DNA of 64,000 nt from Candidatus Microgenomatus sp. GTDB taxonomy: Bacteria; Patescibacteriota; Minisyncoccia; UBA6257; GWB1-50-10. Both the position numbers and the translations under genes were made by a program. The stretch lies in the NCBI GenBank assembly GCA_020724805.1, contig DYGI01000001.1, positions 111,157-175,156 of the forward strand, written 5' to 3'. Under the pieces are notes generated by a model, which was given only the letters and a program-made list of their open reading frames with translations, made no database searches and had not been told where the DNA came from. This document shows positions 41,942-45,742 of the stretch, in pieces (position 1 is the first letter of the stretch; each line of letters begins with the position of its first letter).

Positions 41942-42469
41942 ATGACCGAGCGGCGCGAAATATCGGCGGGAATGATCATTTATCGGCGTACCCGCGAGGG
42001 ACCGAAATTCCTTTTGCTCTATAGCGGCGGCTCGTACTGGAATTTTCCGAAAGGAAAGCTCATCGAAGGGGAGCGTAATTTCAGAGCGGCGCTTCGGGAA
42101 GTGGAAGAGGAAACGGGCATTGCGCCGCGCGACCTCCAATTCAAAAGCCATTTTAAAGTGGAAGACCACTTCACGTACGTGCGGAACCGTGAGAAGATTA
42201 GAAAAACCGTTACCTACTATCTCGCGGAAACGCGCAAACACGAAGTGCGCCTCAAAATAGTTCCTCCCGGGCATCAAGGGGAGAGACACGAAGGGTACGG
42301 ATGGTTCACACTGCGGGACGCCTCGAAATTCCTTCGCACCCCGAATCTCAAACGACATCTGAAATATGCCTACGACACCATCGTTCGTCGAAAAAGTGCA
42401 CCGTCTCGCCCGCGCGATTCCCAGGGGGCGAGTCGCGACGTACGCGGACCTCGCCCGCAAGCTTCGTAA
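41942..42469 (+). CDS. NUDIX hydrolase (Ap4A hydrolase-like)
   Basis: WNFPKG...GE...AALREVEEETG Nudix box. Confidence 0.9.
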   Translation: MTERREISAGMIIYRRTREGPKFLLLYSGGSYWNFPKGKLIEGERNFRAALREVEEETGIAPRDLQFKSHFKVEDHFTYVRNREKIRKTVTYYLAETRKHEVRLKIVPPGHQGERHEGYGWFTLRDASKFLRTPNLKRHLKYAYDTIVRRKSAPSRPRDSQGASRDVRGPRPQAS

Positions 42470-42671
42470 CCCGCGCGCGGTCCGCGCGGTGGGGAACGCC
42501 CTGAATAAAAGTCCGGGGATGCCACGGGTTCCTTGTCATCGCGTGGTCCGTTCGGATGGCTCGGTGGGCGGTTTTGCCTCCGGCACGAAGGCGAAGGTGA
42601 AGCTTTTGATGAAAGAAGGGGTTCGCGTGGAAAAGGGGAAAGTGGACCTTGTGCGGTTCCGTATGAGGTAA
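42366..42671 (+). CDS. MGMT/Ogt family DNA alkyltransferase
   Basis: GRVATY, RAVGNAL, PCHRVV active site. Confidence 0.92.
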   Translation: MPTTPSFVEKVHRLARAIPRGRVATYADLARKLRNPRAVRAVGNALNKSPGMPRVPCHRVVRSDGSVGGFASGTKAKVKLLMKEGVRVEKGKVDLVRFRMR

Positions 42672-42718
42672 AAAAAGAGTCCAGCGGGCGCTCGCATCGA
42701 GGGCCGTACGCTGGACTC
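42670..42718 (-). terminator. Intrinsic terminator
   Basis: GAGTCCAGCG/CGCTGGACTC stem followed by 7 U on the minus strand. Confidence 0.7.
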
Positions 42719-42885
42719 GCAGGTTCTCCGCTTCTGCGGAGGCTCCGGATTGCTTCGGAGCGAAGCGTGTGGTGGAGAGGGCTTCGTTCCCCACGGACGA
42801 GGAAAAACGCTCTCCACGCGTTTGGGACGGCCGGCGATGAATGAGTGCCGGCGAGTCAAGGAACAATGCTCGGAGGACCGAGCGC
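42670..42885 (-). ncRNA. Candidate structured non-coding RNA, family unrecognised
   Basis: TTGACG-N17-TATCGT upstream, six consecutive hairpins, terminator, no credible ORF; strand not certain. Confidence 0.45.
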
Positions 42886-43035
42886 TATTACGATATTCCC
42901 GCTCGCGTTATCCGTCAAACCAAAAGCCCCGAAGGGCTTCTATCGGTGCAGTCCAAAGGACTGCATTCAAACTGGTGCGCCCGGTGGGGCGCGCGTTATC
43001 GATATAACCGCCACGGTGCCGCAGGGCGGCCGGTT

Positions 43036-45423: not shown

Positions 45424-45742
45424 TGGTGGACATGGTCGGAGTCGAACCGACGTGTAACGCTTTCGGTAAAAAGCCCTCTACAAGCTTATTTCTCTTACGA
45501 GAACAAATGGTTCGTAATTTTGCGCTCCGCTACTGAACCGTCTTACGGAGCGCGAGCCTCATTTATTACACCGGAGAACCCCTATGAGGCGTCGGGAGCC
45601 GATGTCCTACTTACGCGAAAGCGTAAGCGGGAGCTGCAACTTTAGAGTTGGCAGTTTTAGGTTTGACCATGGATTTACGAGCGAATGGTCGGCTCGGCCT
45701 GCAAGCTCTCTACTTCACGCGCTAACAAGGCCCGTCATGCCC
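45424..45742 (-). ncRNA. ssrA: tmRNA, tag ANSKVAAPAYAFA
   Basis: Acceptor GGGCATG/CATGTCC-ACCA with G3:U, T-arm GGTTCGACTCC, tag ORF 45652-45611, begins 1 nt after the smpB stop. Confidence 0.95.

Follow-up and report, generated by a model that had tools for sequence, protein, structure and literature searches.

A structured RNA unit with an rRNA-type boxA leader downstream of rplT in Candidatus Microgenomatus

What is encoded between the gene rplT and its convergent neighbour in the genome of Candidatus Microgenomatus sp. (G000; 612,614 bases, 98.9% complete)? The stretch of DNA analysed here, 64,000 nt in length and called the window below, carries at 42918-42670 on the minus strand a segment which an earlier note, made from the sequence alone, had described as a structured RNA unit with a promoter, a boxB/boxA-like leader and a terminator. 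Upstream lies rplT, coding for ribosomal protein L20 (43036..43380, minus strand; PF00453, E 2.7e-32). On the other side an alkyltransferase-like gene, named by its PF01035 domain only (E 2.1e-28), runs towards it on the plus strand (42366..42671). Since the flanking genes converge, the unit has no role as the 5' leader of any gene; a riboswitch or other leader element was rejected on this ground and for want of a conserved alternative or antiterminator helix.

The space between rplT and the promoter is occupied by two elements which do not belong to the unit. A dispersed repeat of about 100 nt (42933..43035, minus strand) exists in five copies in the genome, the others at C3:7330, 12965, 24147 and 105627, and is missing from this site in the homologous locus L119 and in the run contig X7. 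Most copies begin with TAAAACC. This hairpin repeat gave four BLAST matches also in the genome G001; its copies there, like the copy at rplT, follow immediately after a stop codon. The terminator hairpin of rplT (42922..42940, minus strand), which has counterparts in L119, G001 and G002, then stands directly 5' of the promoter. The five-copy repeat found by BLAST is this adjoining sequence, 43035-42933, and not the unit itself. The unit is present once in the genome according to BLAST, nhmmer and the covariance model, and is thus neither a REP or MITE repeat nor part of a REP cluster, a possibility raised in the earlier note.

A sequence check recovered all the elements listed in the earlier note at their positions. 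On the minus strand, the -35 hexamer TTGACG (42913..42918) is separated by 17 nt from a weak -10 hexamer, TATCGT (42890..42895), and transcription would start near 42884. The -35 hexamer is identical in L119 although the spacer has diverged; the -10 box, TAATTT at the same spacing of 17 nt, is weak there as well. Promoter-like sites number three in 2.5 kb, compared to 0.7 +/- 1.0 in shuffled sequences. Then follow a predicted 5' hairpin at the position of boxB (P1, 42868..42883), the boxA-like motif GTTCCTTGACT (42854..42864), a predicted hairpin with an open loop of 11 nt which is absent from L119 (P2, 42830..42852), and a variable domain with a closing GGAG/CUCC helix (P3, 42772..42817). The 3' part consists of P4 (42742..42761), a 6-bp stem with an 8-nt loop, of P5 (42726..42741) and of P6 (42677..42718), and ends with a tract of seven U (42670..42676) which overlaps the stop codon of the convergent gene. 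P6 is predicted to be the intrinsic terminator and is possibly also a binding site. The 10-bp stem and the U7 tract described before are both there; the stem is not a plain one, however, as it runs on beyond a UAC bulge into 3 bp, a C.C mismatch and another 3 bp. A simple terminator scan called P1 only and missed P6.

Folding of the minus strand gave -101.9 kcal/mol (z -6.55), a value equalled by none of 200 shuffles; for the plus strand -113.1 kcal/mol was obtained (z -5.38). The combined pattern of promoter and boxA-like motif matched once in the window and not at all in 100 shuffles. No frame with both its start and its stop inside the RNA exists in G000, in line with the claim that there is no plausible ORF. 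The sequence itself is backed by two assembled contigs: X4, an 883-nt run contig from the study that is the possible source, covers the unit with zero differences, and X6, 151 nt long and assembled from another study, agrees with it at every position of 42689-42839.

Comparison of rplT-downstream regions, proposed in the earlier note as a way to find covarying homologues, yielded one. From 58 rplT matches in the family 30 loci were fetched, and among these the unit is found in G000 alone; both congeners lack it at this site and, according to BLAST, also elsewhere in their genomes. A scan of metagenomes with the C-terminal part of rplT (43 of 64 parts) returned at least seven loci, and in one of the seven listed, L119, the unit is located at the equivalent site. 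A tree built on three genes, with 22 rows after the omission of nine of 31 for a missing gene, unites G000 with L119 as a clade (support 97/95) nested among congeners without the unit; a tree of rplT only does not settle their relation. At fourfold sites the two are identical in 93 of 154 positions (60%).

Despite this distance, L119 (fold z -4.98) shares with G000 the TTGACG hexamer, the 17-nt spacing, P1, boxA and the whole P4-P5-P6 module. P1 is kept with one double change and one G-U, as read by eye. In the module all 27 of 27 pairs are kept, with five double changes and one single change: two double changes fall among the six pairs of P4, three double and one single among the 16 of P6, and the five pairs of P5 are invariant while its loop is wholly changed, to UUCG in L119. 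Identity amounts to 43/54 in stems and to 15/31 in loops. Invariant in both sequences are the UAC bulge, the C.C mismatch and the A-CAAU of the P4 loop; the GCAA once taken for a conserved tetraloop in P4 did not hold, the homologue having instead an 8-nt loop with A-CAAU. When 11 changes were placed at random in the stems, all pairs survived in 3 of 200,000 trials. All four helices, moreover, had been predicted in the G000 fold prior to the finding of L119. With two sequences, and with a pair shuffle that equals the covariation score in 15 of 500 cases (two full sequences), formal covariation is not proved. The earlier note had further cautioned that some G-U pairs favour the plus strand. L119 resolves this in favour of the minus strand, on which lie its promoter, boxA and U-tract as well as a G-U pair and two loops, cUUCGg and GGGA (the latter of GNRA type). 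Since these loops and the G-U pair share the strand of the promoter, we assign the unit to the minus strand.

The unit is not conserved as one whole. Leader and 3' module are, but P2 and the interior of P3 are not: the middle domain is unalignable, with P2 and a simple P3, a single irregular hairpin, in G000 and a branched domain in L119. In both a GGAG/CUCC helix closes it, a homology drawn by eye. Immediately after boxA, L119 has a frame of 11 codons led by GGAGG, the layout of the protein-coding cassettes of the order. An additional palindromic element, not present in G000, is found in L119 between the U-tract and the stop codon of the neighbour (L119:585-635). Two further alleles are known from one low-depth run contig each, with partial coverage. 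X8 spans 42681-42839 with eight different letters and one gap; of these, the gap and a single substitution in a linker are the ones listed. In X7, rplT is followed by the promoter with no repeat in between, then by the 3' arm of P1 with another loop and by a boxA closer to the consensus, after which the sequence is a different one. Taken together, we consider it likely that an RNA gene truly exists here and is selected for its structure; the comparison of the two sequences shows selection on the P4-P6 fold.

How firm is the boxA? Compared to the consensus GYTCTTTAANA given in PMC5725501, the motif agrees in 8 of 11 positions in G000, in 9 of 11 in L119 and in 10 of 11 in X7. The same 9-mer, GTTCCTTGA, occurs after a promoter and a hairpin in a 16S leader of the family (L281). 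Promoter plus boxA was found in 164 of 401 genomes of the order, compared to 18 of 179 with a scrambled box, the latter being a nested, smaller sample; the reversed pattern was found in about 33 of 401. Among 50 such loci, a non-random draw, four lead into 16S rRNA, two into nusA-like genes and 18 into a frame of at least 30 aa preceded by GGAG or GAGG; several have no frame. The two cases in which boxA stands directly 5' of a nusA-like gene, identified from its translation (L140 and L286; none before nusA of G000), suggest an autoregulation of Nus factors in these two relatives. G000 encodes NusB, NusA and NusG; crude patterns, short motifs, gave no match to S10 or SuhB. Rho (PF07497) was detected neither in G000 nor in any of 80 genomes. 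The boxA reading of the earlier note is thereby strengthened, on account of the 9-mer common to the L281 leader, of the excess over the scrambled box and of the Nus genes.

The rRNA leaders of G000 hold degenerate boxA-like text only. In this genome the 16S gene lies apart from 23S-5S, with a promoter of its own each (C3:265970-267600, C4:108480-110486, C3:464300-464812; 5S at C3:464303-464418), and tRNA-Ile and tRNA-Ala stand apart from the rRNA genes at C3:339762. Just 3' of the 5S gene a second unit reaching from promoter to terminator was noticed (L357:330-520, minus strand), which is about 170 nt long, folds with z -2.77 and has no long frame.

In its arrangement of promoter, 5' hairpin and boxA before a structured non-coding RNA, the unit resembles the leader of rRNA operons, on which the NusB-NusE-NusA-NusG-SuhB complex assembles. 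It differs in that about 190 nt and a terminator follow, with no rRNA, tRNA or boxC, in an order without detected Rho. The layout of a hairpin followed by boxA is described for Bacillus subtilis (PMC13753749). Outside rRNA, boxA is reported from suhB, from the autoregulation of Nus factors and from CRISPR arrays (PMC5725501, PMC13753749), the survey in PMC5725501 leaving non-coding RNAs out of consideration. Our unit likewise uses boxA outside rRNA; those targets, though, are mRNA leaders or repeat arrays in proteobacteria that contain Rho, whereas here it is a small stand-alone RNA.

Searches against Rfam, at the gathering score and up to an E of 10, gave chance matches only, and no family was assigned. 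The Moco-II RNA motif (RF01713) came up in L119 only, with 18.2 bits and E 0.86 where at least 35 bits are needed, and with nothing in G000, and was discarded. No model for rRNA or tRNA matched. The absence of RNase P, SRP and tRNA signatures was borne out by Rfam and model searches of the unit: RNase P RNA is found elsewhere in G000, tmRNA lies at 45424-45742 of the window, as had been expected, and the unit matches neither family. For SRP RNA (RF00169) no match was obtained in the unit, and neither this RNA nor Ffh was found in G000. As to 6S RNA, supposed in the earlier note to lie elsewhere, none was found in the window, in the G000 genome or in 39 genomes of the family; the unit has no match to RF00013 and folds into several hairpins, not into a rod with a central bubble. 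The gene for Ro60 (TROVE), the partner of Y RNA, was not found in the genome and neither was a reverse transcriptase, which disposes of a Y RNA and of a retron or RT-linked RNA. A type I toxin mRNA was dismissed too, there being no frame in G000 and 11 codons in L119 only.

Two groups of RNAs nevertheless offer a comparison. Protein-binding small RNAs of bacteria include 6S, CsrB/RsmZ and Y RNA. With these the unit has in common its own promoter and terminator, a size in the range of 200 nt and a structure kept more than the loop sequence; it differs in that it matches no Rfam family, is not rod-shaped around a central bubble, lacks repeated GGA loops and has no Ro60 as a partner in the genome. 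The scaffolds of the tracrRNA, omega RNA and reRNA type combine a variable part with a constant run of 3' hairpins, much like the variable part and the constant 3' hairpins, ending in the terminator, of our unit. Such a scaffold was rejected, as the genome has no Cas12f/TnpB gene, no nuclease or array adjoins and Rfam gave no match. Of the interpretation given in the earlier note, novelty, structure, non-coding character and a leader of boxA type are supported by the lack of an Rfam match, the syntenic homologue with covarying pairs and the single copy; the stable transcript proposed there is putative.

How far does the unit extend beyond these two loci? A covariance model of P4-P6 was built from the two sequences, so that distant forms may escape it. 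In 95 genomes of the family it gave one weak match (G078, E 0.032, 23 bits), rejected as a homologue since it is a terminator-like stretch within coding-looking DNA; in 149 genomes of the order it gave none. A pattern of the 3' module found nothing in 300 genomes of the class, and two strict patterns nothing in viral contigs. Loose patterns matched at least 176 viral loci (one of them run over 11 of 64 parts), none of which pass the covariance model. BLAST with the unit against 60 relatives, 400 genomes of the order and the two congeners brought no true match, the weak ones being att-like repeat ends or coding text; the L119 unit had no match in the 95 family genomes, and phage and plasmid records were negative for the unit. 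The leader pattern matched 30 times in genome contigs and 27 times in viral contigs. None of these is a homologue; among them are a hairpin-boxA before a terminator, from Paceibacterota, and two that resemble the leaders of Acidobacteriota rRNA. As judged from these searches, the RNA family appears restricted to one sub-clade of one genus. Since both congeners lack it and no convincing copy exists in the 95 family and 149 order genomes, the unit must be dispensable and narrow in distribution.

The leader, in contrast, is not confined to this unit. Units with promoter and boxA occupy the rplT site in five of 31 loci (G000, L119, L028, L037 and L043). The inserts of L028, L037 and L043 being of unrelated sequence, the leader is a common chassis carrying lineage-specific bodies. 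The inserts after rplT in L028, L037, L041 and L043 are poor in frames, fold with z -2.8 to -6.0 and match neither the covariance model nor Rfam. That of L037 measures about 450 nt; L028 and L043, sister taxa, have DnaA-box-like text, a promoter, a related 5' hairpin and boxA in common and differ in their bodies. Cassettes of promoter, boxA, GGAGG and a short orphan frame are common across the order (L126-L155, L280-L299), and G000 has short-frame cassettes at C3:77594 (+) and C4:49874 (-). In L126, L150, L151, L153, L290 and L295 promoter and boxA are followed by 180-400 nt rich in hairpins and poor in frames, without an Rfam match for these units. About 270-320 nt past the boxA of L148, after a small frame, hammerhead-like core text (CTGATGA ... 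GAAAC) is present which stays under the Rfam gathering score. An anti-SD tail of 16S rRNA was found in none of 30 loci of the order; a loss of CCUCC from 16S is reported for a subgroup of Parcubacteria (PMC9297842). Before G000 genes GGAG or GAGG shows no enrichment (63 compared to 62 of 577 crude gene calls).

What, then, might the RNA do? Our preferred reading, to which we give somewhat less than an even chance, is a stand-alone non-coding RNA gene of about 215 nt which is loaded with Nus factors at boxA and acts in trans via a protein at its 3' module of three hairpins. Transcription by sigma-70 polymerase would start from TTGACG/TATCGT, elements that are conserved, just behind the rplT terminator. 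P1 and boxA would then recruit NusB-S10 to the polymerase carrying NusA and NusG, as suggested by the motif, its position and the Nus genes. According to the abstract of PMC4807359, the maturation of rRNA is the main role of the Nus complex, and a role in folding is stated. Loading would probably favour co-transcriptional folding or protect the 5' end, rather than act against Rho, which is disfavoured because Rho was not found in the order. The RNA would fold into a variable 5' and middle domain plus the constant P4-P5-P6, and end at the predicted terminator, U7. This constant part, which includes the invariant bulge, mismatch and A-CAAU loop described above, may bind a protein and so act as its scaffold or decoy. 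Protein binding is reached here by elimination, as a downstream gene, a conserved switch, a conserved frame, a shared seed or target and a second copy are all absent; the structure retained in P4-P6, in addition, exceeds the needs of termination. Candidate partners searched for in the genome, namely Ro60, Cas12f/TnpB, reverse transcriptase and Ffh, were not found.

Among the rivals, the most serious is a small-frame cassette in decay: a relic or minimal protein-coding cassette that lost its frame in G000 and whose 3' module is a stability element and terminator, not a trans-acting RNA. It holds this rank because the GGAGG and 11-codon frame of L119 sit, at equal spacing, where the coding cassettes have theirs. 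The 18 of 50 promoter-boxA loci leading into such frames, the two cassettes of G000 itself and the GGAG paired to CUCC in both RNAs point the same way. We still consider it unlikely, given that G000 has no frame at all, that about 90 nt of 3' structure with bulge and mismatch, more than a terminator needs, outlived it, and that CCUCC is missing from the 3' end of 16S rRNA, both in G000 and at 30 of 30 loci of the order. That last observation invites a further thought. Across the order there might be an undescribed type of cassette, with a strong promoter, boxA, a terminator of its own and often GGAGG, of which the unit is a non-coding example, and these cassettes might be delivered as RNA or DNA to act in or on the host cells of the epibionts; boxA and SD would fit a cell possessing Rho and an anti-SD tail, neither of which was found in the lineage. 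Because boxA also precedes the 16S and nusA leaders of the lineage itself, it should be functional at home, and we regard an action in the host as most improbable. The RNA might alternatively pair through open loops and linkers (AUUCAUC) with start-codon regions or rRNA, P4-P6 merely stabilising it. The 11-nt open loop of P2 would suit this, and the 10-mer ATTCATCGCC is present in both RNAs, the complement of nine of its nucleotides occurring twice in 23S rRNA. Yet the 10-mer lies at different structural places in G000 and L119, the complement was rejected as common, being present 19 times in the genome, and no start region ranks within the top 18 for both RNAs (577 crude gene calls). Loops are, besides, conserved less than neutral sites, and a crude search gave no motif match for Hfq or CsrA, which makes base pairing improbable.

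Presence that varies among congeners, the occupation of this site by promoter-boxA units of other sequence in L028, L037 and L043 (three others of the 31 loci), the adjoining five-copy repeat and the exchanged middle domain could together indicate a selfish or neutral mini mobile element, or palindromic insertions stacked at a safe convergent site. Against this, the genome has one copy, and none was found in phage and plasmid records or among the viral pattern loci, at least 176 in number. The same position in the sister species implies vertical descent, with the structure held over about 40% neutral change; the genome shows no TnpB, RT or IS110-like motif, and the ends of the neighbouring genes are unmatched in the BLAST list, so that we assign little probability to mobility. 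Control in cis, finally, would mean that the promoter makes antisense RNA to, or collides with, the transcription of the clp-MFS-NUDIX-alkyltransferase-like genes, boxA permitting read-through of P6. In its favour, the U-tract overlaps the stop codon of the neighbour, and on the plus strand no U-tract follows P6, from which it results that the neighbour's mRNA would run antisense across the unit. P6 and the U-tract are conserved, however, L119 has an additional hairpin between unit and neighbour, and P4 and P5 would be superfluous in such a role. We therefore judge it very improbable.

We found no paper on this RNA or on small RNAs led by boxA in Patescibacteria, in a search outside of which most subscription papers lie. 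Three preprints on non-coding discovery (10.64898/2026.10.21.760802, 2026.09.22.753630 and 2026.09.15.751765) contain, in the parts accessible, one unrelated mention of Patescibacteriota; their supplements and cluster databases could hold the motif. The unit thus is apparently an undescribed structured RNA whose boxA leader is of the rRNA type, from a lineage in which Rho was not detected. Its significance is bounded by its narrow range, one sub-clade. With promoter, boxA and terminator of its own on a template of 215 nt, it would make a compact in vitro substrate for the action of the Nus complex without Rho. For the organisms themselves, it would add an uncatalogued structured RNA to a group with streamlined genomes and few RNA genes, in which no 6S or SRP RNA was found, and it may widen the range of boxA and the Nus factors, which covers rRNA, CRISPR arrays and some few leaders of mRNAs, to include a small RNA standing alone.
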